From an uncultured Candidatus Saccharibacteria bacterium (GTDB lineage Bacteria > Patescibacteriota > Saccharimonadia > UBA4664 > CAZOQX01): a stretch of 64,000 nt of DNA. The notes beneath the pieces were generated by a model. The model saw only the letters and a list, made by a program, of their open reading frames with translations. It was not told the origin of the DNA and did no database searches. Position 1 is the stretch's first letter. Every line of letters begins with the position of its first letter. The DNA lies in assembly GCA_964582465.1 (NCBI GenBank), contig CAZOQX010000002.1:7379-71378 (forward strand). The letters run 5' to 3'. This document shows positions 31,260 to 56,736 of this stretch, in pieces. Made by a program: the position numbers and the translations under genes.

Positions 31260-31672
31260 GGTCCAGATTATTGGATAGCTGCTCGTGTCGAAAGGCGCGA
31301 GAGGAAAGTCCGGACAGCTTAGAGCGTGGTGGTTGCTAACGGCAACCGGGAGTAAATCCCGCGTCGTTTCTCTCGAGAAAACGGTGCCGGGAAGAAGCCT
31401 AGGGAAAGTGCCACAGAAACAATACCGCCTTCGTTTTCGAAGGTAAGGGTGAAAAGATAAGAGGTAAGAGCTCTTAAGTCCTTGTCGGTGACGGCAAGGA
31501 GCGGTAAACCCCACCTGCTGCAAGGAGTCGGCTACCCGAAAGGGCTGGTGCTCGCCAGGCCGGCGTTTGAACCCGCACGACCCTACTGGCAACGGTAGGG
31601 CAAGATAGATAGCTATCCATTTCGCCGTAAAAAGCGGAGGGACAGAATCCGGCTTACAGATAATCTGGACCA
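31260..31672 (+). ncRNA. rnpB: RNase P RNA, bacterial type A
   Basis: Conserved blocks GAGGAAAGTCCGGAC, ACAGAAAC, GGTAAACCCCACC, ACAGAATCCGGCTTAC; P1 formed by GGTCCAGATTAT / ATAATCTGGACC; ends +-5 nt. Confidence 0.85.
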
Positions 31673-37160: not shown

Positions 37161-37445
37161 ATGGCAAAAACTCGCAATAAAAAGAAGCACAAGGGGCAGC
37201 ACAAACGGCGTGATCACAACCGTCCGGTTGCTGCGCCTAGCTCAGTTTCTCCGCCGGTGGCGGCAGCCGTGGCAGAGCCGCCCAGAGAAGTGCAGACACC
37301 CGAACCGGCCACAGTATCCACGAGCGATTTTTATTATGTGCGCAGCGAAGTAAGGCGGATTGGGTTGTTAGCGTTATTATTTGTTGGGCTGGAAGTCGGA
37401 TTCTGGATAGTTGCTCACTTAACTTCTCTAGGCTCTAAACTCTAG
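37161..37445 (+). CDS. small basic/membrane hypothetical protein
   Basis: Lys-rich N-terminus, one TM helix; weak RBS. Confidence 0.3.
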   Translation: MAKTRNKKKHKGQHKRRDHNRPVAAPSSVSPPVAAAVAEPPREVQTPEPATVSTSDFYYVRSEVRRIGLLALLFVGLEVGFWIVAHLTSLGSKL

Positions 37446-38934
37446 CCCGATACTGCATGGCTTCGGCCAGGTGAGCAGCCGAGATACTTTCGGCTTCCGC
37501 CAGATCCGCGATTGTCCGGGCGACTTTTAACATTCGGAGGTACAGTCTGGCTGATAGGCCCAGGCTGGAGAGGGCTTGCTCGGCCAACTGCTTTGCCGAC
37601 TGATCTAGCGCACAGTAATTTCTGATGTCGGAATTATCCATATCGGCGTTAGTCCGATCGTCGCCGAATCGAGCTTGCTGAACCAATCGAGCGTTTTGGA
37701 CTCGCGTAGCCACGGTTTCGCTGGGCTCGGTCGAGACCCCCTCAATCAGGCTTGATTGCTTCACTCGGCTGACATTTACAATCAGGTCGATGCGATCAAG
37801 TAATGGACCGGAAATTTTGCGGCGATAACGAGTGATTTGACTCAAGCTACAAGAACAATTAGTCGAGCTATCGCCAGCATATCCGCATGGACAGGGGTTT
37901 TGGGTAGCAACCAAGATAAACTTGGCCGGTAAGGTTAGTGAACCGGTCGCTCTCGCGATGGTCACTTGGCCATCTTCGAGTGGTTGGCGTAGAGCTTCGA
38001 GCACACCACGCGGGAATTCCGGTAGCTCATCAAGGAATAGGATGCCGAGATGACTTAAACTAATCTCACCGGGTTTAGGAAAGCGGCCGCCGCCAATCAG
38101 GGCGATGTCGCTGGCTGTGTGGTGAGGGCTGCGGAGGGGTCTGGTTTCAACTACACCATGGACCGCTTGGCCGGCCAGGCTGTGCAGTTTGGTAATCTCG
38201 ATCATCTCTTGGTAGGAAGGTGGGGGCAGCAGGCCAAGCAAGGCCTTAGCGAGCAGCGTCTTGCCTGCACCGGGCGGGCCCGACATCAGTAAATTATGCC
38301 CGCCGGCAGCCGCGATTTCGAGGGCACGCTTAGCCTGCTCCTGACCATAAATCCAGCTCAGATCGGCCGCTCCTGTGGCCATCTGTCCAGCCGGCTTGTG
38401 AGCGCGGCGGTAAGGTGCAAGTGGAGCCTCGCCGATCAGGTGCCGATACAACTGCCGCAAGTTTTCTAGCGGATAGACATCAATCCCCTCAACTAAAGCT
38501 GCCTCGGCCGCGTTCGCCTCGGGCAAAAAGATTTTACTAACCCCGGCGCGTCTGGCTAGCTCAGCGTAGACCAAACTGCCCCGAATCGGTCGCAGTCTTC
38601 CCTCAAGTGATAACTCTCCGACGAAGAGGGTATCGGTGGGTGTCTCTTCAATTTGCTCACTGGCTGCCAGGATGGCTACGGCCATGGCCAAATCGTAGCT
38701 GGTACCATCTTTGGGGAGATCGGCCGGTGCTAGATTTAAGGTGATGCGTTTGGGCGGCAACACGAGATTGCTATTTTTGATGGCGCCGCGAATGCGCTCT
38801 TTGGCTTCATCGACGGCTTTATCGGCCAGTCCGACTATGATTAAAGAGGGCAGACTGTTTGAGAGGTCACATTCAACCTCTACTAATGCTCCTTCGAGTC
38901 CGGCTAGGGCCGGGGCATTGACTTTTGCTAACAT
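37435..38934 (-). CDS. comM: Mg-chelatase-like AAA+ ATPase YifB/ComM
   Basis: Lon-like N domain, Walker A GPPGAGKT, ChlI-type C-terminal domain. Confidence 0.88.
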   Translation of the reverse strand: MLAKVNAPALAGLEGALVEVECDLSNSLPSLIIVGLADKAVDEAKERIRGAIKNSNLVLPPKRITLNLAPADLPKDGTSYDLAMAVAILAASEQIEETPTDTLFVGELSLEGRLRPIRGSLVYAELARRAGVSKIFLPEANAAEAALVEGIDVYPLENLRQLYRHLIGEAPLAPYRRAHKPAGQMATGAADLSWIYGQEQAKRALEIAAAGGHNLLMSGPPGAGKTLLAKALLGLLPPPSYQEMIEITKLHSLAGQAVHGVVETRPLRSPHHTASDIALIGGGRFPKPGEISLSHLGILFLDELPEFPRGVLEALRQPLEDGQVTIARATGSLTLPAKFILVATQNPCPCGYAGDSSTNCSCSLSQITRYRRKISGPLLDRIDLIVNVSRVKQSSLIEGVSTEPSETVATRVQNARLVQQARFGDDRTNADMDNSDIRNYCALDQSAKQLAEQALSSLGLSARLYLRMLKVARTIADLAEAESISAAHLAEAMQYRARV

Positions 38935-39051
38935 GGTTTTCTCCTGTTGCCGGCTATTTTAACCGAACACAAACCGTACAGTCAAGCATGAGAGTAATAT
39001 TGTTGTCAGTGATTATTTACAAACTCACAAACTCTTGGTATAGTTAACGCC

Positions 39052-39834
39052 ATGGAAGATAGTGTCGTTCAAAGCTTAGAAGAATTAGGCTTAAGCGAGA
39101 AGGAAGCCAAAGTTTATATGGCAGCTCTGGCGCTTGGGCCTTCGCCGGTACAGAAAATTGCCGATGCAGCCGGCATTAAGCGCGTCACCACTTATGTAAT
39201 TTTGGAATCGCTCACAAATTTGGGCCTCGCCAGTCAGTCCACTCGGGGGAAAAAGACTTACTTCGTGGCTGAAGATCCTATTAGCTTGCGCCGATTGGTC
39301 AAAAAGAAGGAGCAAGAACTGGATGATCAAAAGCAAAACCTGGAGAATATTCTGCCGGCCCTGACAAAACTCAAAAGTCGACCCAAGGAAGTGCCGCAAG
39401 TGCAATTTTATGATAGCGTCGAGGGTATTCGCTCCATCATGGCCTCATTTATTGAGCTCCGGAAGCAGAAAGACGTTAAGAAGCTTTACGGAATTAGTAA
39501 TTTAGATCAGCTCTACAGCTTCTTTCCCGATATGGAGGGAGGGGCAAATCCGGAGCGGATGAAGAGCGGCCTGGCCAGCGAGTTTATCTACACCTATAGC
39601 GGTGGGCCGACACTGAAGGATTCAGACAAGCAGTCGAAGCGCATTTCTAGGTTTGTGCCGCCCGACGTTTTTAGTATTAATGGGGATATTTCTATTTTGG
39701 GCGACAGTGTGGCAATCTTGGCCCTAGGCGGTCAGCGACCGGTTGGTATCACCATCAAGAGCGCCGAGATCTCCAAGGCCATGAAGGCCTTATTCGACTT
39801 GGCTTGGGAAGCCGCGGCCAAATTCAACCAGTAA
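39052..39834 (+). CDS. TrmB-family transcriptional regulator
   Basis: LGLSEKEAKVYMAALALGPSPVQKIADAAGIKRVTTYVILESL wHTH. Confidence 0.65.
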   Translation: MEDSVVQSLEELGLSEKEAKVYMAALALGPSPVQKIADAAGIKRVTTYVILESLTNLGLASQSTRGKKTYFVAEDPISLRRLVKKKEQELDDQKQNLENILPALTKLKSRPKEVPQVQFYDSVEGIRSIMASFIELRKQKDVKKLYGISNLDQLYSFFPDMEGGANPERMKSGLASEFIYTYSGGPTLKDSDKQSKRISRFVPPDVFSINGDISILGDSVAILALGGQRPVGITIKSAEISKAMKALFDLAWEAAAKFNQ

Positions 39835-39863
39835 ACCGGTTTTGCTAGTTATAATTTACACTA

Positions 39864-39893
39864 TTGACGTAAGAGGCATCGTTAGGTATACTG
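39864..39893 (+). promoter_or_regulatory. strong sigma70-like promoter (TTGACG - 17 nt - TATACT)
   Basis: Near-consensus -35 and -10 with 17-nt spacer, read directly. Confidence 0.5.
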
Positions 39894-39899
39894 AGCGCA

Positions 39900-40262
39900 C
39901 TTGTTCAGGTCACCCAGCACCTTTCTTCTGCTAGATCCCCCTGTCCACGTGCGTCTCGCGAACTTCCCCTAGAGACGATCGTTTGTATCAACCGGACTTC
40001 GCGGTGCGAATCGCGCCCCGTGCGGCCCATCGGACGCCAGGAAAGGGGGATAATGAAGAATGGTCCAGTGATCAGAACAGCGAGACCGCGTCACCGCCGG
40101 AACTGGCGATCCGGCGCATGGCGCACACGGTCTCATCGGAGTTGATGCGGGAGGGCGACCCACGGTGTTGATCGGCTACGCCGATCTGAGGGGCCGGCCG
40201 CCCCACACCACGCCCCCCGCATCTCTCCGGACCCCAACTAGCGCTTAACGGGCGCCTTTTTT
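39900..40262 (+). other. GC-rich transcribed unit of unknown nature (candidate ncRNA, or Arg-rich 30-codon micro-ORF at 40053-40145), ending in terminator
   Basis: Bounded by promoter above and GCGC-hairpin plus T6 run at 40240-40266; contains AAAGGGGGATAATG micro-ORF; composition differs sharply from flanks. Confidence 0.3.
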
Positions 40263-40270
40263 ATTTCAAA

Positions 40271-41284
40271 CTAAGCTTTACCCTGATACCACAAGGCGGC
40301 ATATTCTGGGAACACTGCGTTTATAATCATACCGGTTGAGAATTCAAAACCAGCCCGGGGTGTCTTTGGTACTGGTTCTAGCCGCAACATGAAGTGGTGG
40401 TCCAGGCCTAGCGCCGGCTCCTGTAGGTAATAGTTATAGTCGATCTGGGAGTTGTTTAACCGTGAAGTTAGATTCTTAAGTGAGGTCGCGAGGCTCGTGC
40501 GCTCCGCCAGCTGCGCATCTATCAAAGAGGCGAAGTGTCGGCGCGGGATCAGCCAGGCCTCAAAGCGTTTTTTGCTCGCAAATGGGGCAATTATTACCAA
40601 GTTTTTGTCTTCATAAATAATGCGGGCCTTATGCTGAATTTCCCAATCAATAATGTCGCAGACAGGGCAGCGGTCATGCTTCGCGTGATAATCGGCATAG
40701 GCGGCAGCTTCTTGAGCCACCGCCGGAGGAATCATCGGCAAGGCCGAAATCTGGGAGTGCAGATGCGCTCGGCTGGCCCCAGCCTTATGACCGTTGTTAC
40801 GAAAGACGCTGACGTACTTAATTCCGGGGATGGCGGCGAGTACCTTAGTCCGTTGGACGTAGCCTTCGAGTACAGCTTCGATCTGAGCTACCGGTAATTC
40901 GTTAAACTCTACATTGTGCTCCGGCGTATCTAATAAAACTTCTTGTTCACCGAAAGCGTGGGGGTTCGACAGGGTGAGAGAGGGATACTTATTCTTGACG
41001 GCGCGGACTAGCCAGCCACCCTGGCCATCAGGCAAGTCCCAAACTATCGGCTCCATCATATCCTGGCAGTCGCTCGCGTTATGGCGGTGGTCCAGGCCCG
41101 GGTCTTCTTCCTTAAAATCGCGTGGCCTTTGACCACGTTTGGCCGAAAGCAGCACGTAACGCTCTTCATAATAATCTTTGCGGATTTCGGCCTGGGCCGG
41201 TACAGGATCCGCGACGAGAGTTTCAGGCTTAAGTTTAAGCGGTTGACTGTAGGGAGACATAAACCTCACCATTAGCACTTTCAC
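40271..41284 (-). CDS. galT: galactose-1-phosphate uridylyltransferase-like (GalT, HIT superfamily)
   Basis: CPVCD zinc motif and HLHSQI (HxHxQ) active site. Confidence 0.7.
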   Translation of the reverse strand: MKVLMVRFMSPYSQPLKLKPETLVADPVPAQAEIRKDYYEERYVLLSAKRGQRPRDFKEEDPGLDHRHNASDCQDMMEPIVWDLPDGQGGWLVRAVKNKYPSLTLSNPHAFGEQEVLLDTPEHNVEFNELPVAQIEAVLEGYVQRTKVLAAIPGIKYVSVFRNNGHKAGASRAHLHSQISALPMIPPAVAQEAAAYADYHAKHDRCPVCDIIDWEIQHKARIIYEDKNLVIIAPFASKKRFEAWLIPRRHFASLIDAQLAERTSLATSLKNLTSRLNNSQIDYNYYLQEPALGLDHHFMLRLEPVPKTPRAGFEFSTGMIINAVFPEYAALWYQGKA

Positions 41285-41321
41285 TAAGCTTAACAGTTAT
41301 GGGGCAGCTTTTGAAGAGGTT

Positions 41322-42467
41322 TTAAGATTTTATAAAGGTTTCAATTAGAAACTTGGCGATGCGATCGCTCTCGTCAGCTTTAAACTCGGAGGCACGCAGG
41401 GCCTGGTTGAACGGCTCAAGAGATTGGGGCTGGGATAAAAACTGCGTCACCAGTTGAGCGGCTCGCCGCGGCGTGGTAGCGATCAGACCGAAGTGGCGGA
41501 GTTGCACTAGCTCGGCGTTGGGCTCTTCCTGGCCCGGCACGATGTCCAAAATCAGATTGGGACGCTTGGCGACGATAGCCTCGTAGACAGAAATCCAGCC
41601 GGCTTTACCCACCACAAAGTCGCTCGCGGCTAGCAGATCGGGCATGTTCGCGACATACCCAAAAACTCGAGTCGGCGTTTTAAAATCAATTTGTCGGAGT
41701 TCTGCGGCAAGCCGACGATTATACCCGGCTACAAATAGGTACTGGGCATTTAATTCCTGAGTAGCGAGCAGGCGGGCCAGCGCCAGCATCTTCGTGCTAA
41801 GGCCGAGGCCGCCACCGTTTATGAGTACGGTTGGCTGGTTGGCGAGCCCCAGTTTGGTGCGGGCTGCAGACTTAGTGGGCAGCCGGCGGAAGCGGGGATC
41901 GAGTGGAAACCCCAGATAGTGGACCCTGCGCGCGCTCAACCCCGCCTGGACCAACAGATCAGCCGTTTCCTTGGTTGGAGCAAGAATGGCGTCCTCGCCG
42001 GCGTAGAGCCAGGCGCTATGCACTTTGCCCGAATCTGTCACCATTGTTACCAGGGGCACTTTAAGGCCGGTTTTCTTTAATGATTGGGCTAAGAAGTGGT
42101 TCACGATCATATAAGTACAAATGATTAAATCGGGGTTTTTAGCCTCAAGATAAGATTCCAGGGTTGGCCGAACCGCCGGCGCCCACAATTGAATAAACTT
42201 TTTAAGCGACTCAAAACGGGTGTCCGAAAGGAAGTAGGACAAGCGAAAAGGGTAACTGCCCAACCACTTCACACTGTTTTCATAGAAGGGCACGGCCAAC
42301 TTTTCGAGCGGCACAATAAACTTTAAGTCCTTAAATACGTCCGCCACTTCCACATCAACTTCTTCCTTATATAGACGCGAAATAGTGGCGGCGAGGGCTC
42401 TAGCTGTCGCTTTGTGGCCGCCTCCAACAGAGGTGGTAACGATTAAAATCTTCTTCTTTGCAGGCAT
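41322..42467 (-). CDS. diacylglycerol glycosyltransferase (MGDG-synthase/UgtP-like, GT28)
   Basis: N-terminal MGDG_synth-like ILIVTTSVGGGHKATARAL, C-terminal GT28 domain. Confidence 0.7.
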   Translation of the reverse strand: MPAKKKILIVTTSVGGGHKATARALAATISRLYKEEVDVEVADVFKDLKFIVPLEKLAVPFYENSVKWLGSYPFRLSYFLSDTRFESLKKFIQLWAPAVRPTLESYLEAKNPDLIICTYMIVNHFLAQSLKKTGLKVPLVTMVTDSGKVHSAWLYAGEDAILAPTKETADLLVQAGLSARRVHYLGFPLDPRFRRLPTKSAARTKLGLANQPTVLINGGGLGLSTKMLALARLLATQELNAQYLFVAGYNRRLAAELRQIDFKTPTRVFGYVANMPDLLAASDFVVGKAGWISVYEAIVAKRPNLILDIVPGQEEPNAELVQLRHFGLIATTPRRAAQLVTQFLSQPQSLEPFNQALRASEFKADESDRIAKFLIETFIKS

Positions 42468-42531
42468 AATTTAGTCGCGAAGTAATTTCGCTGTATCATG
42501 ATTAGCATAAAGATAATAACCGGAAGAATCA

Positions 42532-43554
42532 ATGCGTCGAGCCCGTTTTAGGACCATAGTTCTGGCCACTTTGGTGCTGTTTGTTGTACTTTTTACCGCA
42601 ACTTGGCTTGGTTTACACAAACTAGAGACTAATAATCGCGCCAAACCGGCCACACTTGGAGTTAGTTTCTCGGATAAATATGCCCGGGAGCTGGGCCTGG
42701 ACCCTCATCAGACGTTTTTGGCCTTGCTCGGCGACTTGAAGATTAAGCATTTGCGCCTGATGAGCTACTGGGACGAGGTCGAGCCGTCCCAAGACCATTT
42801 TGACTATAAGGAGCTAGATTGGCAGCTGGCACAAGCGGCCAAATATCACGCGACCGTGACTCTCGCCATTGGTTTACGCCAGCCGCGCTACCCGGAGTGC
42901 CATTACCCCGGGTGGGCCACCAACTTAAGTTATGATAGTCAGCTTAAAGCCTTGTACACTTACCTGGCCCAAACAGTCAATCGTTATAAAGATAACCACA
43001 CTATCACTAGTTGGCAGCTCGAAAATGAAGCTTTGAACCGAGTGTTTGGTCAGTGCCATGACTTTAACTACGATCGCCTGCAAGCCGAGTACCAACTGGT
43101 AAAACAGATTGATACGGGCCGGCCGGTGATCACCAATTTAAGTAACGAGTGGGGATTGCCGCTGCGCGCGCCGCTGGGTGACCAGATTGGCTTTTCGATG
43201 TACCGGGTGGCTTACATTAAGCCCGTGTGGCACGCCTACTTTTACTACTGGGCACCGGCTTGGGGGCATACGCTGCGTGCTAGAGTGATCCAACGGCTGT
43301 GGCATAAGCCGATTATGATCCATGAGCTGCAGGCCGAGCCTTGGGGCCCGGCGCCAACGGGTCAATTATCGCTGGCGGAGCAGAATAAGAGTATGAATGC
43401 GGCCAAAATTCAGGCAGCCGTAAATTATGCCAAGTCGACTGGGCTTAGTCCGATTTACCTCTGGGGCGGGGAGTGGTGGTACTGGCGCTATACTAAGTTT
43501 CACGACGTCAAACTGTGGCAAACTGTGCAACAGATTTATAAAACTAGCTCTTAA
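42532..43554 (+). CDS. membrane-anchored glycoside hydrolase, clan GH-A TIM barrel (GH5/GH26-like)
   Basis: N-terminal TM; SWQLENEA (catalytic NE) and later E-containing strand typical of clan GH-A. Confidence 0.5.
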   Translation: MRRARFRTIVLATLVLFVVLFTATWLGLHKLETNNRAKPATLGVSFSDKYARELGLDPHQTFLALLGDLKIKHLRLMSYWDEVEPSQDHFDYKELDWQLAQAAKYHATVTLAIGLRQPRYPECHYPGWATNLSYDSQLKALYTYLAQTVNRYKDNHTITSWQLENEALNRVFGQCHDFNYDRLQAEYQLVKQIDTGRPVITNLSNEWGLPLRAPLGDQIGFSMYRVAYIKPVWHAYFYYWAPAWGHTLRARVIQRLWHKPIMIHELQAEPWGPAPTGQLSLAEQNKSMNAAKIQAAVNYAKSTGLSPIYLWGGEWWYWRYTKFHDVKLWQTVQQIYKTSS

Positions 43555-43612
43555 AATGCGAGGAGCCCTCCACGACGAATCGTGAAGGGCTCTCTCGGAC
43601 AGACTTGGTGTA

Positions 43613-44397
43613 TCAGGGCTCGTGGTGGTAGATGCCCTCGGGTGGCATGCCCGTCGGGAAGGGCTGATGCCCGCGGAAGATCTGCGGCTTCATCAGCTCC
43701 CGGTACCGCGCGATGCCGTCGGCCGTTTCCGGGATCCGAACACGACTCGGGTCCAGGTTGTACCGTTCGTCCTTCTTCCAGTCGTGAGCCGAGGCGTACC
43801 ACTGCTGGTACCACGGCCGCACGAACATGATCAGGAAGAGCATGCAGGCGATCGTCCAGCCCTGGCGGGCCAGGTTGGCTTCGACTGCCGCCACCACGGC
43901 GTGTCCGGTGACGGTGCCATGCTCGAGCCCCGTCACCAGTCCGCTCAGCGCTGCAACCACCGTGGACATGGTCCAGGCGACGTAGTAGCTGAGCGGCAAG
44001 TGGAGAAAGCTAGGCTCCTGAGCGAACCACCACACCCGGTAGGGGAAGTCGCGCAGCCGGTACGCCGGGTTCAGGACGAACCAGGCGAAGTCCCAGGCTG
44101 AGGCGAACATCAGGTAGATCGCGAGATCCTTCAGCACCTCCGACCAGCTCCAGCGCCCCGATGAAACCATGGGGTAGAGGAGCCAGACCAGGGGGGTCGC
44201 GAAGAGGAACGCGTGGTAGCCCGTGAGGGGCTTCCCCGTGAACCTGATCCACACCCTCGCTGCCACCGAGCTGCGGCGGTAGAAGGTGGGGAATCGCTCC
44301 GCCCACCCGTAGGGTCCTTCGGCCTCGATTTCGAAGCCGGCGAACAGGAACTCGAGCAGGAACAGCCACAGTGCCGCGTACAGCGGGTGCATGTCCA
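43613..44397 (-). CDS. polytopic membrane protein, GC-rich foreign-looking gene
   Basis: ATG 44397 with GGAGG RBS 8 nt upstream; 6-7 TM helices, aromatic-rich; GC3-saturated. Confidence 0.5.
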
Positions 44398-44644
44398 TTT
44401 CGTACACCTCCAAGTTGTCCGAAGGTTCAGGAATGCCGGATTGGCACTCGAAGGCGTTAATATAGCATAATTCTTCCAAAACGTCAATGCTTAACAGGTT
44501 GAAGTTTAGACATTCCTCTGCTAAGATATATTTCTTAGCGACGAACCAAACCAGGCTATAGCCGTTTGGGTCGTCGAGAGGAGAAACTGAGCGCAGGCGA
44601 CAAGTAAATTAGTTTTACTTCAGCCGGAAGCTCAGTTTGGACGA

Positions 44645-45017
44645 GGGGCTGACATAGCTTCGACGTGAGTACATTTACAGACTATTTAGCAGGTCGGCTG
44701 GGGGCGTTACCTCCAATCTCAACAACCGAGAACTTTGTAGCTAAGCTGAAGAGCCTTTTCCAGGTTCCTCAAGCCGCTTTTGCCCTAGCTTAAGTCTAGA
44801 GCCATCGGCACCTGACACCAGATAGGGGTCTGCCGGTGCCAATCATCTGGTTGCCTTGCTTCTGCTTGCTCAAGCGCTGTAAGTAAGATATAGAGCTGGA
44901 TCACCGCTTGTTTGTGAGTTTTGCGGACGGTGATTGAGAGGATCAAATCTCACTAAACCTGTAGAATGATAGTTTGTTAGCTTGCGGACCGGGGTGCGAT
45001 TCCCCGCAGCTCCACCA
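44645..45017 (+). ncRNA. ssrA: tmRNA (SsrA)
   Basis: 5' GGGGCTGA..TTCGACG and 3' GGACCGGGGTGCGATTCCCCGCAGCTCCACCA match tmRNA tRNA-like domain; candidate tag ORF ending ...AAFALA-TAA at 44791-44793. Confidence 0.85.
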
Positions 45018-45142
45018 AAAGGGAATCTGACGAAATTCAGGTTCTTTTTTGATTCAAAGAAACGATCCGCCCCATTCTACAATTGACTTTTCATTACTCT
45101 TATGCTAGAATAACTCTCAACGACCTCGGAAAGGGGGCAGAA

Positions 45143-45601
45143 ATGCCGGGTTTGTGGTTCTTCTTCAAGGCCAGGTGGGCCCTGCGCAAGCAGCTTCGCG
45201 GTCTGAAGGTTCGTCGTTTCAACGGCGAATTGACGATCCGCGGGGTCACGCTACACCAGGTGGGTTCCCCCAAGAGCGTGCATCGCGCCCTCGGCAGCTC
45301 GGACGGCTGTGTTGGTCCTCAGTACACGGGTTACCCGTCCGGCATCGTCACCAGCTACTACAGCGAGGACTACGACGGGCAGTCGGTGACGGATGCGACC
45401 TACGCCCTCGTCGTCGACCAGATCGGTCGTGCCGGGTTCATGCGGCATTACGGCGTGGCTGACACGGAGCTGGTCTCCTGCGTGTACATCGCAGCGGGCT
45501 GTGACATCCGTCGACTGGCCCTACTCCTCGGGAAGTACTCCCGGGCGGGACACATCAACTTCGACCGCTACCGGCGGCCGGCGGAGATGCTCTCCGCCTG
45601 A
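45143..45601 (+). CDS. hypothetical protein, GC-rich foreign-looking gene
   Basis: ATG 45143 after AAGGGGG; GC3-saturated codons. Confidence 0.45.
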   Translation: MPGLWFFFKARWALRKQLRGLKVRRFNGELTIRGVTLHQVGSPKSVHRALGSSDGCVGPQYTGYPSGIVTSYYSEDYDGQSVTDATYALVVDQIGRAGFMRHYGVADTELVSCVYIAAGCDIRRLALLLGKYSRAGHINFDRYRRPAEMLSA

Positions 45602-45782
45602 TCAATTGCCCGCTGAAGCATTCGTTTTCAAGAACGTCTGCCTCGGCGGGCGTTCTGTTTTTTACAACAGTTTTACCAGATATAACAAATCAAGCGTTTT
45701 AACGAAAATTGACACAATTATCACGTTTTTGTTGTAAAGGTTAACCTTTATCGCTTGTGGCAGAAAGGGGATCATAGCATGC

Positions 45783-45968
45783 ATGTGCACAGAAATTTAT
45801 GAAGAAGCATGCGAGGATTGTCAGGGCCAGCTAAGGCTTATCTTCCGCCACAAAACAGAAGATCTGGGCTGTAGCGCCATTTACGTCTGTATAAGCTGTA
45901 ATCAGAACTATTCTATTATTATTCCGCCAGTTTGCTCCGCCAGCTTGCCACATCTATCAACCGCTTAA
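45783..45968 (+). CDS. Cys-rich 61-aa peptide (CxxC...CxxC), hypothetical
   Basis: AAAGGGGA RBS 11 nt upstream; 8 Cys; native-like AT-rich composition. Confidence 0.35.
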   Translation: MCTEIYEEACEDCQGQLRLIFRHKTEDLGCSAIYVCISCNQNYSIIIPPVCSASLPHLSTA

Positions 45969-46013
45969 GACTGTTACAAATCAAAAAGAGGTGCCCTGGG
46001 CAAGGGAACCCTC

Positions 46014-46523
46014 TTACAGCAGCCCGGTCACCTTCAACCAGGCTTGGTTCTGATCGGCGAGCAACTGGGTCATGTTTCGGAAGATTGATTCCAGCACAAG
46101 CCCCATTGTCTCACCGAGGTGATCCCACTGCGCGAGGCCAACGACAGCTCGTATGGCAGCCAGCTGCTGAAGGGCGAAGTGGGACGAAGCCGGGACCAGT
46201 GTGCCGCGACGGGTAATGACCACCTCTGATCGATTTGACAGCCAGTGTGGGCGAGTCGACCAGCGCTTGATAACTGATTCGAAGAATGCCTGGCGATGCT
46301 CATCATCGAAGCCAATTAAGTCGAGGCTCGAGAGAGTACAGCCCAATTTCGTGCTGCCGTCAGCGAACACGAAGTAGGCAGCCTCGGGCTCGGCCCGGTG
46401 CAATGATGCCAGGATCTCGTACCCGTATTCCAGAGGCGACTTGGCGTCACCCCGGATCACCAGCCGGCCAGCTTCGAGTAAGGCAGCTAGCCGGCCTGGA
46501 TTCATCGGAGAACCTCTTGCCAT
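46014..46523 (-). CDS. hypothetical protein, GC-rich foreign-looking gene
   Basis: ATG 46523 with GGAGG RBS; GC3-rich. Confidence 0.45.
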   Translation of the reverse strand: MARGSPMNPGRLAALLEAGRLVIRGDAKSPLEYGYEILASLHRAEPEAAYFVFADGSTKLGCTLSSLDLIGFDDEHRQAFFESVIKRWSTRPHWLSNRSEVVITRRGTLVPASSHFALQQLAAIRAVVGLAQWDHLGETMGLVLESIFRNMTQLLADQNQAWLKVTGLL

Positions 46524-46720
46524 TTCAATCCTCCAATCGTCTAAGGCCCCACTTACACTTCGGCCATTGACTATGGACCACTTGCATCCCTTGCCCAGGG
46601 TGATTTGATGATACGCCCTCCAGGAAGGGGCAGCAAGCATTTATTGACCGTAAGCGGTTTTTATGGTATAAACAGCAAGACGTTTGCCAACCCGGCAAAC
46701 CCGGACCCTGAGGAGGGTTC

Positions 46721-47407
46721 ATGCTGGAGTACAAGGTCCGTCTGTACCTCAACCCGTGGGGCGAGACAATCACCAAGGACGAGCTCCCGCGGATCCTGAA
46801 GCACGTCGCGGAGACGCGGGCCATGCACGTCGGCAGGCAGTTCGATCTCGGGCACTACAAGCGCAACAGCCTCGGACTCGCCATCCTGGACCCGACGGCC
46901 CCGATCTGGCGCCCAAGCACGCACACCCTGCTTGCGACCATCGCCATCGGCCCCGAAGGTGAGCGCTTTCTGCCGAACGCCGTGGCGAAGGCCGTGGAGC
47001 ACCGGGACAAGGGCCAGCTCGCCGGCTACGGTGCCTACGTGGACTTGACGCAGACGGCCGACGGGGACTTCACCTATGGCTTCTCCTGCCGGGTCGACGA
47101 CACCATCGGCGGGGCCAGCGGCCAGACCGAGATCCAGGATGCCTGCGAGGCGGGCCATGCCCTGGTGACGTTCAACTACCTGGTGCGGCAGGCGCGTGGC
47201 CTGTGGCTGGCGAGTCGCCAGGGACACCCTCGATGGTTCAGCGACGCCGATCAGCCCGCTGCGAAGTACGTCTCGATGACGCAGGCCGGCGCGCTCACGA
47301 TCGTGACCTCCGACTCGTCGCAGGACAAGTCTGACGACGAGGACATCGAGCCGACGCGCAGCTCCACCGACGCCTACGACATCGGGCAAGGCACTGCCGG
47401 GCCCTAG
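46721..47407 (+). CDS. hypothetical protein, GC-rich foreign-looking gene
   Basis: GGAGGG RBS; GC3-saturated; followed by hairpin terminator ~47420-47460. Confidence 0.5.
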   Translation: MLEYKVRLYLNPWGETITKDELPRILKHVAETRAMHVGRQFDLGHYKRNSLGLAILDPTAPIWRPSTHTLLATIAIGPEGERFLPNAVAKAVEHRDKGQLAGYGAYVDLTQTADGDFTYGFSCRVDDTIGGASGQTEIQDACEAGHALVTFNYLVRQARGLWLASRQGHPRWFSDADQPAAKYVSMTQAGALTIVTSDSSQDKSDDEDIEPTRSSTDAYDIGQGTAGP

Positions 47408-47526
47408 CGGCTCGGGCAACACATCACAGGGCGGGTGGCTTCTCATCGGAGAGGCTGCCCGCCCTGGCTCTTTTCAAGGATAATTTAGTTGACAAAATAA
47501 TGCTTATGTATTACGGTATTAAAGCT

Positions 47527-47625
47527 ATGACTAACGTAGTTACAACTAAATTCGTTACGGTAGGCCGAGTGCAGTATCTGCGCGCGGGTTCTTTCCGTAA
47601 CCAGGAGGCCCTAGTGCCGAGTTAA
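47527..47625 (+). CDS. candidate 32-codon leader peptide upstream of ABC exporter
   Basis: Short ORF between TTGACA-containing promoter region and intrinsic terminator; internal AGGAGG-N5-GTG mini-ORF. Confidence 0.3.
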   Translation: MTNVVTTKFVTVGRVQYLRAGSFRNQEALVPS

Positions 47626-47656
47626 CAAAAAGAGTTTGTTGGGGAACTTTTTATAG

Positions 47657-47682
47657 CTCGGCGCGAAACGCCGGCTTTTTTG
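47657..47682 (+). terminator. intrinsic terminator / candidate attenuator in exporter leader
   Basis: CGGCG-CGAAA-CGCCGG hairpin plus T6. Confidence 0.55.
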
Positions 47683-47739
47683 TTGTAAAAAGTTCTTTGA
47701 CAATCTCTCTATTCGCCATCTAGCAGAAAGGGGAAGGCA

Positions 47740-49527
47740 GTGAAGTTCGCAACTGTCAGACGGATGTGGCAGCTTTTGCGGGACGACCCCCTCAACGTAG
47801 AGCAGGTAACACGCCTGAAGCGAGTGGCACTTCGCACGCTTGGTTGGCTAATGCTAACCGAGCTAATGATCGTGCTTGCGATCTACCCGCTCAAGTACTT
47901 CTTCGATGCCATCGCCAAGCCCAACCAACGCTTCTTCGGCCTGAGCCAGGTGCCGTTCATGCTGGTAATCGGCGCCATGTCGCTTGCTACCTACCTGGCC
48001 ACGTCGCTCGCTAACTTCAAAAACGAGATCGGCCGCAATGAAGGGTCCTGGCTGTTCTACGTCATGGTGAACGATTTCGGCAACCGTAAACAGTTGTCGC
48101 TCGGAGCCGATTGGCACACCGAAAACTCCACGGGCGATAAGGAGTCGGTGTTGTCGAAGAACCACAAGAAAGTCGACAACATGGTGGACTGGCTCATCTA
48201 CTTCATCGCGCCCTTAAGCTTCAAACTGGTCTTTGTGACTGTGGCACTCGCGGTCATTAACTGGCAATTTGGTCTGCTCACCTTGGTGACAGAGCTCGCC
48301 TTCTTCGCGGTAATTCGCCGCAACGAGCGGGTGATTTCGCCTTTGCGCAAGGAGCATCGGCGTTTCACTAAGCAAATTGAGCGGGAGGATTCGGAGCTTG
48401 CCGGGTCTGCTACCACTATTAAGGAGCAGGGTATTGAAGACAAGCTGGCTGACGACCATCGCTCGCTGGGCCGACTATTCCTGGAAACAGAGGGCGGTCG
48501 CTACAAGCGTTTCCGTACGCTCATCTGGTATCAGGATCAAATCCTGGACCTTTCACGCCTGGCCATCCTGGCGCTGTCGTACTTGAACTTTCGGCAGGGG
48601 CTATCGATTGGCAGTGTTGTGCTCGCGAACTCCTGGCTAGCTTGGTTGTTCAGCGATCTGTGGCGCTTCTCGGAGTTTCAGAACATTCTAAATCAGGGGG
48701 TCGAAGCACTAGGCGAACTAGTGGAGCTATTTGAAACCGAGCCGACCATTCAGACGCCGGCTCGCCCGCAGTGGCCGCCGGCTGTGCAGGGTCGGATTGA
48801 GCTGCGGCAGGTTTCGTTCGAGTACCCGCGTGGTCAGATCGCCCTCACAGACATTGACCTCACCGTCGATCCGGGAATGACGGTGGCTCTGGTCGGCCCG
48901 TCGGGTGGCGGCAAGACGACCTTGGCGCGGCTGGTGATGCACCAGTACGACCCCTCGGCTGGTGAAATCTTAGTGGACGGCGTGAATCTGCGCGACATCG
49001 ACGACAAGCGCTACCGCTCGGAATTACTCGGTGTGGTGGCGCAAGATCCAGGTCTTTTTAACCGCTCAGTGCGGGAAAATATCCGGATCGCAAAGCCCGG
49101 TGCGAGCGACGATGAGGTCTTGGGGGCCGCTCGTCAAGCGGCGGCGGAGGTCTTCATTCAATCCTTGCCTCAGGGCTTTGACACTCTGGTGGGCGAGGGT
49201 GGCGTGAAGCTTTCCGGTGGGCAGCGTCAGCGCATTGCCATGGCCCGGGCCTTTTTGCGTCGGCCGGCTATCCTGATCCTGGATGAGCCCACCAGCTCAC
49301 TGGATGCAGTGAATCAGCTGCTGATTAAGCAAACGATTACGCGGCTGGCCGCCAGTCGGAGCTCGACTATCCTGATCATCGCGCATCGTTTCAGCACCAT
49401 CGAGATGGCTGATCTGGTAGTGGTGCTGGAAGATGGACGCATTTCCGAGATGGGCACCCATGCTGAACTGGCGCGTCGGAATGGACTGTACATGAGACTG
49501 CGGCAGCTGGAGGGGCTGCTGGATTAA
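47740..49527 (+). CDS. ABC exporter, fused permease + ATPase (type I exporter fold)
   Basis: GTG start after AAAGGGGAAGG; 5-6 TM helices; Walker A GPSGGGKTT, signature LSGGQRQRIAMARA, Walker B ILILDEPTSSLD. Confidence 0.85.
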   Translation: MKFATVRRMWQLLRDDPLNVEQVTRLKRVALRTLGWLMLTELMIVLAIYPLKYFFDAIAKPNQRFFGLSQVPFMLVIGAMSLATYLATSLANFKNEIGRNEGSWLFYVMVNDFGNRKQLSLGADWHTENSTGDKESVLSKNHKKVDNMVDWLIYFIAPLSFKLVFVTVALAVINWQFGLLTLVTELAFFAVIRRNERVISPLRKEHRRFTKQIEREDSELAGSATTIKEQGIEDKLADDHRSLGRLFLETEGGRYKRFRTLIWYQDQILDLSRLAILALSYLNFRQGLSIGSVVLANSWLAWLFSDLWRFSEFQNILNQGVEALGELVELFETEPTIQTPARPQWPPAVQGRIELRQVSFEYPRGQIALTDIDLTVDPGMTVALVGPSGGGKTTLARLVMHQYDPSAGEILVDGVNLRDIDDKRYRSELLGVVAQDPGLFNRSVRENIRIAKPGASDDEVLGAARQAAAEVFIQSLPQGFDTLVGEGGVKLSGGQRQRIAMARAFLRRPAILILDEPTSSLDAVNQLLIKQTITRLAASRSSTILIIAHRFSTIEMADLVVVLEDGRISEMGTHAELARRNGLYMRLRQLEGLLD

Positions 49528-49652
49528 ATCCTGTGGTAATAAACTACGGGAGAGAGCCCTGCGTTTTAAGCGCGGGGCTCTTTTCTATTGACTAGGCTGA
49601 CTCAAAACACTATATTTTGGTCACTCGTTGACATCTGTTAGGGGGTGGGGAA

Positions 49653-50015
49653 TTGGTTCCGCGAATTGCCGCCGCTGCCTTAGCCGTCGCAGTAGCATGG
49701 GCCATGATTCTCCTGGTGGCCCAGGTCAATCAAGGTGAGGCAGAGCTGGCTGCTCTAGTCTTCTTCTCGCTGCCGTGCGGCCTGTGGGGATATTTCGTGC
49801 CGGCGGATTTGGAAAGCGCCTTCCTTTCCGGCGCCCTGACGCTGTCAGGGATTATCCTGCTGGTTGTGGCTATCTCGGGCGAAGTGAGCTGGCGAGGGAT
49901 GCGACTGGCAGGGCAGATGTTCATGGTGGGTGGCATTTCCGTGGGCCTGGCCTGTATTACCAAGCACCGTCTCCTGCGTGCACAGCAACTTTGGAGGGAG
50001 TCGAAAACACGATGA
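49653..50015 (+). CDS. small membrane protein (3-4 TM), GC-rich
   Basis: TTG 49653 (or ATG 49704); stop overlaps next start (ATGA). Confidence 0.4.
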   Translation: MVPRIAAAALAVAVAWAMILLVAQVNQGEAELAALVFFSLPCGLWGYFVPADLESAFLSGALTLSGIILLVVAISGEVSWRGMRLAGQMFMVGGISVGLACITKHRLLRAQQLWRESKTR

Positions 50016-50419
50016 ACGCCTACCGGTTGTGGTTGTTCTTGGCAGCACTTGGCCTGATCGGCGCCGTGATCCTGGTGTTCCACCCCTGGAGCAAGAGTCA
50101 GCACAAGTTCGCGCTGTCATTCCAGGAAGTGGTTCGGGAACACCTGGAGAAACGTGGGCTTTCCGACGACAGCATCGAGCGCTGGCTGGATTATCCGAAT
50201 GCGCAACTGCAAGGTCGGACACCCCGCCAGGTGCTTCAAGACGGGGACGGTCCACTTGTGCTGGATCTGGCCGACAACTGTCCGGAGGGTGTGCGCTTTC
50301 CTCACTTCGGCCACTCTCATCACATCCGGCTGGACACGGTGGGAAACCTGCTTCCTCTTAGCTCTCCGGACTGCAATCTCTCCGGCTGGGAGCTGCTGCG
50401 ATCGAGCAGAGGCAGGTGA
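50012..50419 (+). CDS. signal-anchored protein with DUF2384-like (Xre/MbcA/ParS antitoxin C-terminal) domain
   Basis: N-terminal TM; SIERWLDYPNAQLQGRTPRQVLQDGDGPLVLDL resembles DUF2384 consensus. Confidence 0.4.
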   Translation: MNAYRLWLFLAALGLIGAVILVFHPWSKSQHKFALSFQEVVREHLEKRGLSDDSIERWLDYPNAQLQGRTPRQVLQDGDGPLVLDLADNCPEGVRFPHFGHSHHIRLDTVGNLLPLSSPDCNLSGWELLRSSRGR

Positions 50420-50519
50420 GCGAAATTAGACTGGGCGGGGCAAAAGAAGCTCCGCCCAGGAGGGCCTCGAGGTAACTCGGGGCCGCCGCTGTTTTAAAAG
50501 GATTAATTGATTATAATCT

Positions 50520-51860
50520 TTGGAAGAGGTGCGCTCTTTGCAAAGAGAGGTAATTGTGAACACGCCCCTGGAAGAGCTAGTTGCACTGATCAGCAAGGGT
50601 TTGTTTGGCACGGAGCAATTTCTCCCGGTCGCTTTTGCGGTAAGCGATCGTCGTAGCGATGGCCAGCCATTTTCTCCTCGTGACCTTAACGCTCGGGCTA
50701 CGTCTGTGCCCAACATGCTGCGTCGTCTGGAAAAACTGGAGTTGATAGAGCCATATGATCAGCCCGGTGCACGCAAGCAGTACACTGTTTTCGATGGTCC
50801 GCTTTGGCGAGTTATTGAGGTCACTCAGGGGGCTCTGAAGGATATCAGTCTAGATCGGGGCTGGGAGCCGCCGGAGCAGCCGGGCTTTGGTCCGGCCAAC
50901 TGGAAGGATCTTGAGGAGTACTACCATTTCTGGGGCCGTTACACCACGGGCTCGTTGTTGCGTCTGGCCTACTTGATCTGGATCAGCCATTTGCCGGAAG
51001 CGGAGTTTTGGCCGACGGATCTGATGAGGTTAGTACCTCGGATGCACAACCCGATGAGCCAGCTCGAGGCGCTGGCGCGGCTGGAGATGGCGAGCGGCTT
51101 TAACGTCGATCAGCAGTGGGTACGTTTGCCTAATCCCCTCTGGGAGATCGGGGTGACATTGGGCGAAGTTTTGCCCGAGCTACTGGAGGAGAGGCGCGCC
51201 ATTTCCTCGCCCAGGCGATTCAAGCTGCCACCATTGCCCGAGATAAAGGATATTCCGATTGATCTGGAGCAGAAGATGGCTGGTCGCGGCGGGTTGGTCC
51301 CAGTTTTAGGGGACGACCCTCTAGTCCACATTGCTCCGATCGAAAAACGTGATATCGAGAACTGGAAGGTCCAAAAAGGGGTGTTCGTGAGAGGCGGCCC
51401 GACCAAGAGCAACGTGGTGGCCGCGAGCTCGCAAACACTGTGCAGGAAGCATACCTCTGAGCGCTTGAGTGCCGAGATCGAACCCGACTGCGAGAAGTGC
51501 TTAGCCGTAGCGCGATCCACTTACAACTATCGAAGTGCGACCGAGGTGATCGAAGTCCGCCGTGCCTACAAGGCTGCCATGGTCGAGGCCTACAACAACG
51601 TCGAGGTAGTCTATACTTACCGCGAGGTTATGAAACTAAGTTCGCTTGATCTACTGGTCGGTCATTGGGCCATCGTAACTGATGGAAACCTAATCGTCGC
51701 ACTCAGGCGAGTCGATCCCACCTACTACGATCTTGTGGCAGCTCCGCCTCTATTCTGGTTTTTTAGTAACAGCTGGGGGCGGATAGGCTGGAGCCTGAGT
51801 GATGCCTTCGACCCTGGTTGGCGAAAAAGAATTGGCCAGAGCCGAGAATCAGCCCGCTGA
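50520..51860 (+). CDS. hypothetical protein (446 aa)
   Basis: TTG start; followed by hairpin terminator 51866-51905. Confidence 0.5.
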   Translation: MEEVRSLQREVIVNTPLEELVALISKGLFGTEQFLPVAFAVSDRRSDGQPFSPRDLNARATSVPNMLRRLEKLELIEPYDQPGARKQYTVFDGPLWRVIEVTQGALKDISLDRGWEPPEQPGFGPANWKDLEEYYHFWGRYTTGSLLRLAYLIWISHLPEAEFWPTDLMRLVPRMHNPMSQLEALARLEMASGFNVDQQWVRLPNPLWEIGVTLGEVLPELLEERRAISSPRRFKLPPLPEIKDIPIDLEQKMAGRGGLVPVLGDDPLVHIAPIEKRDIENWKVQKGVFVRGGPTKSNVVAASSQTLCRKHTSERLSAEIEPDCEKCLAVARSTYNYRSATEVIEVRRAYKAAMVEAYNNVEVVYTYREVMKLSSLDLLVGHWAIVTDGNLIVALRRVDPTYYDLVAAPPLFWFFSNSWGRIGWSLSDAFDPGWRKRIGQSRESAR

Positions 51861-52034
51861 AGTGTGCATGAGGCACTGCTTCGGCGGGCCTCATGTTTTA
51901 ATAATCACTTTGTAGTTAAAGCTACAACTATCCGCAACAGATCGAACAAGTTATTTCTGAAGCTTTTTGGTCCTATCTTATCGAGAAGTAGTAAAATTAG
52001 TGTTCAGATATACTGCTTATGCTAAAATAGCAGC

Positions 52035-56283: not shown

Positions 56284-56736
56284 TTAACCCTTCAACTTTC
56301 GGCCGAGTTCGCGCTCGGTATCGCGCTTTTTAATACTTTCACGCTTGTCGTATTTCTTCTTGCCTTGGCCCAGGCCAATTTCCACTTTAATAAGGTTGTG
56401 GTCAAGCACGATGGCGGTTGGAATTGCTACCAGCCCGGCCTTTTTTTGTCCAATAATGCGCTCTAGTTCGCGTCGATGGAGGAGCAGTTTGCGGCTGCGC
56501 GTCGGTTCGGCGTTATTTTCGGCAGCTGGGGCGTAGGGATTAATTTGGGCATTGAGAAGGTAGGCCTCACGGGACTTTACGGTCACATAACTGCCGGCGA
56601 GGGAGGCATGGCCGCCGCGTAGACTCTTCACCTCCGGACCTGATAGGACAATTCCTGCAAGCAGGGTCTCGGTGATGGCGTAGTCGAACTTGGCGCGTTT
56701 GTTTTTAACCAAAACCTTCATAGCTTGATTATACAA
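56284..56736 (-). CDS. smpB: SsrA-binding protein SmpB
   Basis: NKRAKFDY...GPEVKSLRGG...LLLHRRELE...KKYDKRE signature. Confidence 0.88.
   Translation of the reverse strand: MYNQAMKVLVKNKRAKFDYAITETLLAGIVLSGPEVKSLRGGHASLAGSYVTVKSREAYLLNAQINPYAPAAENNAEPTRSRKLLLHRRELERIIGQKKAGLVAIPTAIVLDHNLIKVEIGLGQGKKKYDKRESIKKRDTERELGRKLKG

Follow-up and report, generated by a model that had tools for sequence, protein, structure and literature searches.

The 3′ side of ssrA in a Candidatus Saccharibacteria genome: a probable fast-turnover segment with a predicted leader switch before an ABC exporter

We analyzed a 64,000-nt stretch of DNA from an uncultured Candidatus Saccharibacteria bacterium (positions 7,379-71,378 of contig CAZOQX010000002.1, assembly GCA_964582465.1; hereafter the window) and, within it, the ~7.3-kb region that lies 3′ of the tmRNA gene, ssrA. 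An earlier note on this DNA had described the region as an island of unrecognized genes inserted next to ssrA, perhaps old or decayed. We think it moderately probable that the region is instead the beginning, at ~45,050, of a flexible segment that is specific to the lineage and turns over fast, neither one element nor one functional module, and that it includes an ABC exporter cassette controlled by a leader switch. Such a segment would consist of units of one or two genes, the majority of which carry their own promoter-like or terminator-like signals; rearrangement and gene turnover, both typically frequent in this lineage, would have assembled them, and site-specific integration at ssrA long ago may have had a part, its readable signature now gone. 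Saccharibacteria rely on bacterial hosts and have genomes of ~1 Mb, and their gene gain and loss are poorly understood.

Window proteins were annotated with Pfam, NCBIfam, PHROGs, and PADLOC, and RNAs with Rfam and ARAGORN; an independent assembly of the same organism was taken from Logan (run SRR9179560). Relatives with ssrA came from a T-arm pattern scan of species-representative genomes. The majority of the matches listed are Caulobacterales, and several are Candidatus Saccharibacteria/Saccharimonadales metagenome-assembled genomes (MAGs), whose proteins are 40-65% identical to those of the window; at least seven useful TM7/Patescibacteria loci were found among these matches. A metagenome scan with the 340-aa protein encoded upstream of ssrA returned distant relatives only (36-53% identity) and no close strain. 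We compared the ssrA loci of relatives labeled L040, L053, L055, L087, L100, L130, and L131, and additionally that of L024 (contig JAYUCF010000057.1).

The conservation boundary at ssrA

The tmRNA gene that had been placed upstream of the unrecognized genes is there: Rfam RF00023 matches the plus strand over its full length at 44,645-45,017 (105.6 bits, E = 3e-40). ARAGORN did not detect ssrA in the window and was overruled by the Rfam match; it also misses the ssrA genes of L130 and L131, both of which were recovered by BLASTN. The T-loop is unusual (GGGTGCGATTCCC), with a G replacing the usual U (GGGUGCGAUUCCC). The tag frame, as read from the sequence, is long and ends in AKLKSLFQVPQAAFALA and a stop at 44,791-44,793, with a similar end in L130 and L131. 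An intrinsic terminator follows at 45,023-45,050 on the plus strand (8-bp stem, 6-nt loop, T6), visible in the sequence and in an alignment of eight ssrA 3′ flanks.

This terminator is where conservation stops. Similarity to the window in L040, L053, L055, L087, L100, L130, and L131 covers the upstream side, ssrA, and the terminator, and ends at ~45,050; the eight aligned flanks are conserved through the terminator T-run, with nothing conserved beyond it. The genes 3′ of ssrA differ in every relative compared: L055 has a trehalase and PilB there, L053 a glucosaminidase together with a C39-like peptidase, L040 and L087 two small unknowns each, and L131 a GC-rich membrane open reading frame (ORF). 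The closest relative, the metagenomic contig L130, has the gene order of the window up to ssrA and stops 118 nt past it. Permissive tblastn found no counterparts of the window's ssrA-flanking genes in L130 or L131. In this lineage, conserved and fast-changing DNA meet sharply at ssrA, and the related genome L024 has a serine-recombinase element on the same ssrA sequence.

A sharp break at ~45,050, with different genes beyond it in each relative, is what an insertion adjacent to ssrA would leave, but core genes farther downstream are equally non-syntenic: smpB, an L,D-transpeptidase gene, and an LCP gene have all lost their synteny. The gene order around ssrA has thus been rearranged time and again, and lack of synteny is not the same as an inserted island.

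Among these core genes is smpB, which encodes the protein partner of tmRNA. In the window this gene (150 aa; 56,284-56,736, minus strand; Pfam SmpB, E = 1.4e-48) lies 11.3 kb downstream of ssrA and convergent with it, and is 12.7 kb from the 340-aa gene and inverted. In 39 of 80 metagenomic TM7 loci, homologs of the 340-aa gene and of smpB share a strand, with smpB downstream and in most cases directly so; Rfam places ssrA within 10 kb of this pair in none of seven such loci. Since the 340-aa gene (glycoside-hydrolase-like; 42,532-43,554), the usual neighbor of smpB, precedes ssrA here, the two trans-translation genes owe their linkage in the window to rearrangement. A lone inversion from the 340-aa/smpB junction to ssrA is not supported as the event, because none of the genes found after smpB in relatives has a homolog in the window. 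Many TM7 genomes (L132, L137, L158, L159, L161, and ~20 more) carry two tandem paralogs of the 340-aa gene before smpB; the window has one copy.

Gene order 5′ of ssrA varies as well. A ComM-like gene adjoins ssrA in L040, L087, and L100, and the order is ComM-GalT in L055 and ComM-TrmB-GalT-340aa in L053. The interval between ComM and ssrA (37,435-44,644 in the window) appears to have grown stepwise across the relatives, first by GalT, then by TrmB and the 340-aa gene, then by glycosyltransferases or a 288-aa gene. The last of these encodes a hydrophobic membrane protein of no recognized family (43,613-44,479, minus strand); it lies outside the region, with the 340-aa gene on one side and ssrA on the other, and L053, L130, and L131 lack it at the same position. 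This stepwise accumulation indicates that the 5′ side of ssrA is also a growth zone. The Logan assembly breaks at ~44,999, and we rejected this break as a sign of strain heterogeneity: breaks are expected at sequence conserved between co-occurring genomes, so it is uninformative.

Repeats and recombinases at the ssrA 3′ end

The rival that fares best is the one first proposed, namely that a mobile element integrated at the 3′ end of ssrA and has since decayed with loss of its integrase, leaving either a short island (45,051-47,368, closed by a 12-nt repeat) or a long one reaching ~51,900. We regard it as unlikely. Its position directly 3′ of ssrA, the exact synteny break, and the presence of orphan genes speak for it, among them a 152-aa orphan with the codon profile typical of a high-GC donor; a 288-aa gene on the upstream side of ssrA, equally rich in GC at third codon positions (GC3), speaks against it, composition being atypical on both sides of the tmRNA gene.

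There is precedent for such an event. In Dehalococcoides, ssrA-associated genomic islands (ssrA-GIs) are bounded by ssrA and a 20-bp direct repeat, with a serine recombinase of ~540 aa, DsiB, next to the left attachment site (attL), and they include tandem islands that have no integrase (McMurdie et al. 2011, PMC3146451). The window resembles these loci in its streamlined genome and in a hypervariable, strain-specific region, rich in hypothetical genes, that starts 3′ of a single-copy ssrA. A closer parallel is found in L024, whose ssrA has the same last 35 nt as that of the window. There, a 522-aa Resolvase-domain (serine) recombinase is encoded at L024:3990-5558 on the minus strand, its 3′ end overlapping the ssrA 3′ end and terminator, and the next gene (L024:6039-6422, plus strand) encodes an HTH_Tnp_1_2 protein. 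A reverse-strand serine recombinase of ~520-540 aa adjoining ssrA is the DsiB arrangement. L024, a TM7-like MAG, thus probably harbors an element integrated in the manner of the Dehalococcoides ssrA-GIs, which makes ssrA a probable integration target in this lineage. The right attachment site (attR) of the L024 element is absent from the 8 kb of L024 examined.

The window itself shares with an ssrA-GI only its position, the start at the 3′ end of an intact ssrA; it has no direct repeat at a far end, no integrase by attL, and no distinct composition across the whole region. Unlike the Dehalococcoides islands, it has no DsiB-like recombinase or integration module. Pfam, NCBIfam, and PHROGs detect no integrase, recombinase, excisionase, or transposase, nor a remnant of one, in any window ORF, which agrees with the earlier note, where neither an integrase nor an obvious attachment-site repeat had been seen. 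A tblastn search of the window with the L024 recombinase gave matches only where that gene overlaps ssrA and no remnant, and neither the region nor the ABC exporter clade shows phage, plasmid, or IMG/VR similarity.

Direct repeats that bound islands in tRNA and tmRNA genes are typically at least 15 bp long. No downstream duplication of 15-45 nt of the ssrA 3′ end, the expected mark of an attR, turned up: the longest copy is an exact 12-mer of ssrA nt 361-372 (CGCAGCTCCACC) at 47,357-47,368. It is on the same strand as ssrA and at the end of a GC-rich block, and in register over the 20 nt that match the Dehalococcoides repeat, 14 of 20 positions are identical. However, the surroundings are unlike the ssrA 3′ flank and terminator expected of a displaced attR (six of the next 45 nt are identical in register), and a match of at least 12 nt to the last 45 nt of ssrA arises in 15-17 of 300 dinucleotide shuffles (~5%). 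A 71-nt probe of the ssrA 3′ end and terminator finds an equally good 12-mer at 10,562, a position irrelevant to ssrA. The candidate repeat also falls within coding sequence, in the C-terminal tail of a 228-aa gene; this tail varies in length and sequence across a TM7-native family that is found elsewhere in housekeeping contexts. The 12-mer is therefore probably a chance match. No other direct repeat that could bound a longer island was found in the window, and a bounded inserted island cannot be demonstrated in it.

Three observations weigh against a fast-turnover segment all the same. Anchored at the ssrA 3′ end, as the 12-mer is, such a match occurs in just 1-2 of 300 shuffles (<1%). The three genes of the window richest in GC3 cluster within 4 kb around ssrA, which a local history of import would explain too. 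And the nearest relatives available share ~50-65% protein identity with the window, with none closer.

The ABC exporter and its conserved leader

The one protein of the region that Pfam, NCBIfam, PHROGs, and PADLOC recognize is a 595-aa ABC exporter (47,740-49,527, plus strand), a half-transporter (MsbA/Sav1866-like) in which a predicted transmembrane domain is fused to a nucleotide-binding domain; a terminator-like hairpin follows at ~49,552-49,586. Its nucleotide-binding domain is clear (Pfam ABC_tran, E = 1.2e-32), with GPSGGGKT (Walker A) at residue 386, LSGGQ at 491, ILILDE (Walker B) at 511, and IAHR (H-loop) at 547. The match to ABC_membrane, the six-helix domain expected at the N terminus, is below its cut-off of 28 (E = 5.4e-5, 23.5 bits); a simple scan shows three to four clear hydrophobic segments, and alignments to NCBIfam MsbA/ChvA-type models begin at about residue 117. 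Seventeen full-length orthologs are 47-55% identical to the protein, after which identity drops to 39% or less. On long contigs the ortholog genes stand alone in unrelated neighborhoods, with none of the other genes of the region nearby.

The exporter gene is preceded by a leader (47,489-47,681, plus strand) that we compared in five distinct genomes: the window, L209, L210, L211/L212, and L213. In all five, the layout is the same: TTGACA, 17 nt, a TAnnnT-like -10 box, an ATG ~10 nt later, a short ORF, a terminator, a conserved box, a Shine-Dalgarno sequence, and the ABC start codon. The promoter elements of the window are TTGACA at 47,489-47,494 and TACGGT at 47,512-47,517; since the ATG lies ~10 nt past the -10 box, a nearly leaderless mRNA is implied. 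The leader ORF of the window has 32 codons (MTNVVTTKFVTVGRVQYLRAGSFRNQEALVPS; 47,527-47,625), and across the five genomes the ORFs have 32-39 codons, with aligned starts and stops (TAA, TGA, TAA, TAG, TAG); an Arg at codon 14, shared by four of the five, also counts in favor of the leader. The terminator, with T6, is at 47,656-47,675 and is conserved (AGCTCGGC...GCCGAG and a T-run, with compensatory pairs). The leader ORF and terminator that had been noticed before the exporter gene are thus kept in five genomes. Within the 1.8 Mb of DNA fetched, a nhmmer profile of the leader has matches solely upstream of genes of this ABC clade, and Rfam gives no match at a permissive threshold.

The box, AAAGTTCTTTGA(C/A)A, is at 47,689-47,702, ~40 nt before the ABC start codon; in L213 it stays by the ABC gene despite an insertion of ~170 nt past the terminator. 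In the window, L211, L213, and L209 it is complementary to GAACTTT in the 3′ arm of the apical stem of the anti-terminator described below. A Shine-Dalgarno-like AAGGAGG/CAGGAGG lies inside the 3′ part of the leader ORF.

Folding suggests that the terminator has a competitor. The window leader folds more stably than shuffled sequences (z = -2.8), and the minimum-energy fold in the window, L211, and L213 is a long hairpin in which the last codons and stop codon of the leader ORF pair with the 5′ arm of the terminator. In the window, this predicted anti-terminator spans 47,614-47,664, its own 5′ arm formed by those last codons and the stop codon. Folds of the nascent RNA pair the terminator 5′ arm with the stop-codon region in five of five genomes, at -17.6 to -24.0 kcal/mol for the anti-terminator and -9.8 to -23.4 kcal/mol for the terminator.

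From this arrangement, a probably leaderless 32-codon ORF, a terminator after it, and a stronger alternative hairpin that joins the end of the ORF to the terminator, the leader is predicted to be a ribosome-mediated transcription attenuator. In the OFF state, a ribosome at the leader stop codon would mask the 5′ arm of the anti-terminator and so let the terminator form. In the ON state, a ribosome stalled upstream, or absent, would leave the anti-terminator free to form, with read-through into the exporter gene. The inducing signal is probably impaired translation, for example by ribosome-targeting antibiotics.

The kind of control we have in mind is that of bmrB-bmrCD in Bacillus subtilis, in which ribosome-mediated attenuation governs a heterodimeric multidrug ABC exporter (Reilman et al. 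2014, PMC4191407). The two systems have in common a small co-oriented ORF upstream of a type-IV-like ABC exporter, an intrinsic terminator, and alternative stem-loops predicted to depend on ribosome position. They share no sequence similarity, and unlike bmrB the TM7 leader has 32-39 codons, is apparently leaderless, and has its terminator after the ORF, not inside it. The TM7 pump is moreover a single half-transporter gene, presumably working as a homodimer.

Several results tell against the attenuator. In L209 and L210, the full-length minimum-energy fold favors the terminator, and RNAalifold on a MAFFT alignment recovers the terminator and not the anti-terminator. Shuffle controls are individually weak when taken sequence by sequence (2, 30, 77, 46, and 13 of 200), the comparison draws on five sequences only, and the box AAAGTTCTTTGA(C/A)A might be part of a separate ABC promoter.

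It is quite unlikely, in our view, that the leader ORF encodes a secreted, bacteriocin-like peptide served by a dedicated exporter, with the terminator setting a high ratio of peptide to pump transcripts. The small ORF, terminator, and ABC exporter are indeed kept together in five genomes, and the leader peptides evolve fast, as bacteriocins do (24-46% identity, vs. 50-75% for the pumps). Codon 14 is Arg in four of the five genomes (CGA, AGG, CGA, CGC), and conservation by synonymous change points to a function at the peptide level. However, a double-glycine leader, a Cys pattern, and a hydrophobic core are all missing from the leader peptides; Pfam and NCBIfam detect no Peptidase_C39 domain in the exporter, whose 595 residues are too few to hold one; and no conserved accessory or immunity genes lie nearby. 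The position of the stop codon within the 5′ arm of a terminator-competing hairpin, in five of five genomes, has the geometry of attenuation and would be needless for a structural peptide gene.

As a predicted attenuator, the leader-terminator switch is previously undescribed and not in Rfam: a cis-regulatory element before a TM7-specific clade of ABC exporters that should be useful to annotators. It also yields a testable hypothesis of inducible efflux in an uncultured phylum.

Composition and the separate units of the region

The GC3 of window genes averages 0.589 +/- 0.068. Within the region it reaches 0.78 in the 152-aa gene, ~0.86 in the 228-aa gene, and 0.71 in the ABC gene, with the other genes at 0.63-0.65, and the highest value of the window (0.86) belongs to the 288-aa gene upstream of ssrA; GC3-rich genes thus lie on both sides of the tmRNA gene. 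Of the three genes described as GC-rich, the 152-aa and 228-aa genes stand out by GC3, and spacer GC, at 0.39-0.52, means that only some of the spacers are AT-rich.

Members of the 228-aa and ABC families are GC3-rich throughout the TM7 genomes, which argues that these genes are native and not imported. In three other genomes, the 228-aa family member is the most GC3-rich ORF (z = 2.9-4.3), and ABC orthologs rank first or second in GC3 within their loci. The 228-aa homologs are outliers in each genome despite protein identities of 50-68%, which indicates that the bias is maintained and not freshly imported. The family members concerned (L123:10001-10621, L125:10001-10594, and L127:10001-10597) have GC3 of 0.72-0.85 in genomes of 46-56% GC. 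In these genomes, high GC together with the lack of a recognizable family does not by itself indicate import.

One could suppose that the ssrA flank is an accretion site for single-gene cassettes, each running from promoter to terminator, drawn from a TM7-wide mobile pool with their GC3 signature kept and with recombinases like that of L024 acting in trans; the DUF336-like 228-aa gene and the leader-ABC cassette may be examples. This is a speculative extension, drawn by analogy with the Dehalococcoides tandem islands that have no integrase, to which we give little credence. If true, it would be an exchange mechanism not yet described for ultra-small epibionts, and the leader-controlled pump would offer translation-stress-inducible efflux suited to antibiotic-producing hosts.

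Recent acquisition of the GC3-rich genes (288-aa, 152-aa, 228-aa, and ABC) from an organism of high GC content, for instance an actinobacterial host, is very unlikely. Their GC3 of 0.71-0.86, the order GC3 > GC1 > GC2 across the three codon positions as in high-GC genomes, and their cluster around ssrA would fit, but the 228-aa homologs sit in TM7-type contexts and are GC3 outliers in each genome, the closest ABC relatives form a clade of their own in similar genomes, and no phylum yields a homolog of the 152-aa protein among the 5.8 billion proteins searched.

As to the suggestion that the seven genes make up one novel secretion or immunity module, their adjacency, mostly on the same strand, and the presence of an exporter with small membrane proteins give it hardly any credibility, because none of the other genomes examined has any two of the genes together (homologs of the 228-aa, ABC, and 446-aa genes are in unrelated neighborhoods), promoter-like sites (before the 152-aa gene and the membrane pair) and terminator-like hairpins (after the 152-aa gene, the 228-aa gene, and the leader) split the row so that only the 120-aa and 135-aa genes are coupled, PADLOC and PHROGs recognize only a generic ABC ATPase, a DUF2384 match is sub-threshold with no RES/MbcT-type toxin as partner, and the inferred folds (DUF336 small-ligand-binding, winged-helix of a nucleic-acid-binding type, zinc ribbon) do not suggest such machinery.

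The units of a fast-turnover segment can be followed in order from ssrA. All ORFs listed in the earlier note exist at their coordinates, with one correction: 46,014-46,523 is on the minus strand. The Logan assembly independently calls the 152-aa, 163-aa (minus strand), and 228-aa genes. The statement that no protein matches a nameable family is right as far as the libraries go, the ABC exporter apart; it fails for the 228-aa protein, which has a DUF336-like fold.

The first unit (45,083-45,666, plus strand) is that of the 152-aa orphan (coding sequence 45,143-45,601), with a promoter-like TTGACT-17-TAGAAT with TG, a Shine-Dalgarno sequence, and a terminator at 45,631-45,656; among 5.8 billion proteins, it has no homolog but itself. 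Next comes a gene for a 61-aa Cys-rich protein (45,783-45,968, plus strand) with a good Shine-Dalgarno sequence, ordinary in composition and flanked by two GC-rich genes. The Cys-rich character ascribed to this peptide is evident, with seven Cys in a zinc-ribbon-like CxxC...CxxC arrangement of two pairs. Its matches to C1_4/TFIIH-like Pfam models are weak and below cut-off, and an exact-cluster look-up showed its exact sequence to be absent from the protein collection. The minus-strand gene at 46,014-46,523 encodes a soluble protein of 163/169 aa, a singleton cluster by exact-cluster look-up, with no library family and no tblastn match in any fetched TM7 locus.

The 228-aa gene (46,721-47,407, plus strand) is followed by a strong terminator at 47,427-47,466. 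Its protein belongs to a TM7-restricted family of 38 homologs of ~198 aa with a variable C-terminal tail, the genes standing singly among housekeeping genes in TM7-type contexts; the one named homolog is labeled Saccharibacteria. Tested against the DUF336/GlcG/HbpS family (PF03928), the protein has the characteristic alpha/beta fold, but its sequence gives no Pfam match at E ≤ 0.1, and a PDB-sequence profile search finds no family member. Compared with DUF336/GlcG/HbpS/PduO-C/EfgA proteins, it is 10-18% identical, and three features set it apart: a further strand/helix at the N terminus, an inserted disordered stretch around residues 100-120, and the variable tail. The DUF336-like assignment takes this family out of the unknown category.

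Downstream of the ABC cassette is a two-gene membrane unit (49,588-50,419, plus strand) with a promoter-like site at 49,588-49,616 and an ATGA overlap between its genes, each of whose products is a singleton cluster by exact-cluster look-up. The first encodes a 120-aa protein with four transmembrane segments (49,653-50,015), and the second a 135-aa protein (50,012-50,419). In the latter, both parts of the prediction, a transmembrane helix (one, N-terminal) and a DUF2384-like motif, are present, but the match to DUF2384 (Xre_MbcA_ParS_C; E = 3.6e-4, 20.9 bits) is under the cut-off of 24.5. The motif (WLDYPNAQLQGRTPRQVL) resembles the toxin-binding C-terminal domain of Xre/MbcA/ParS antitoxins; unlike those proteins, this one has a transmembrane helix in place of the Xre helix-turn-helix, and Pfam and NCBIfam show no RES/MbcT toxin gene next to it.

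The last gene (50,556-51,860, plus strand) encodes 434 aa, or 446 aa when read from a TTG at 50,520; the database copy starts 12 residues after that TTG. The 446-aa protein has no plasmid or phage match. Among 1.84 billion representatives, it has four distant homologs, one of which is in a typical TM7 neighborhood (TrmB, glycosyltransferases, C39-like peptidase, PilB, LytR) with no ABC exporter. The structural model reaches a predicted local distance difference test score (pLDDT) of 72-89 for residues 1-100 only, and its C-terminal half is too poor for fold assignment. The best local structural matches of the N-terminal model are MarR/MepR, ROQ, and RPC62-type domains, and the modeled winged-helix unit probably occurs in tandem.

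Elsewhere in the window, Rfam identifies a bacterial class A RNase P RNA at 31,263-31,672 on the plus strand (235.9 bits), with a 44-nt insertion relative to the model.

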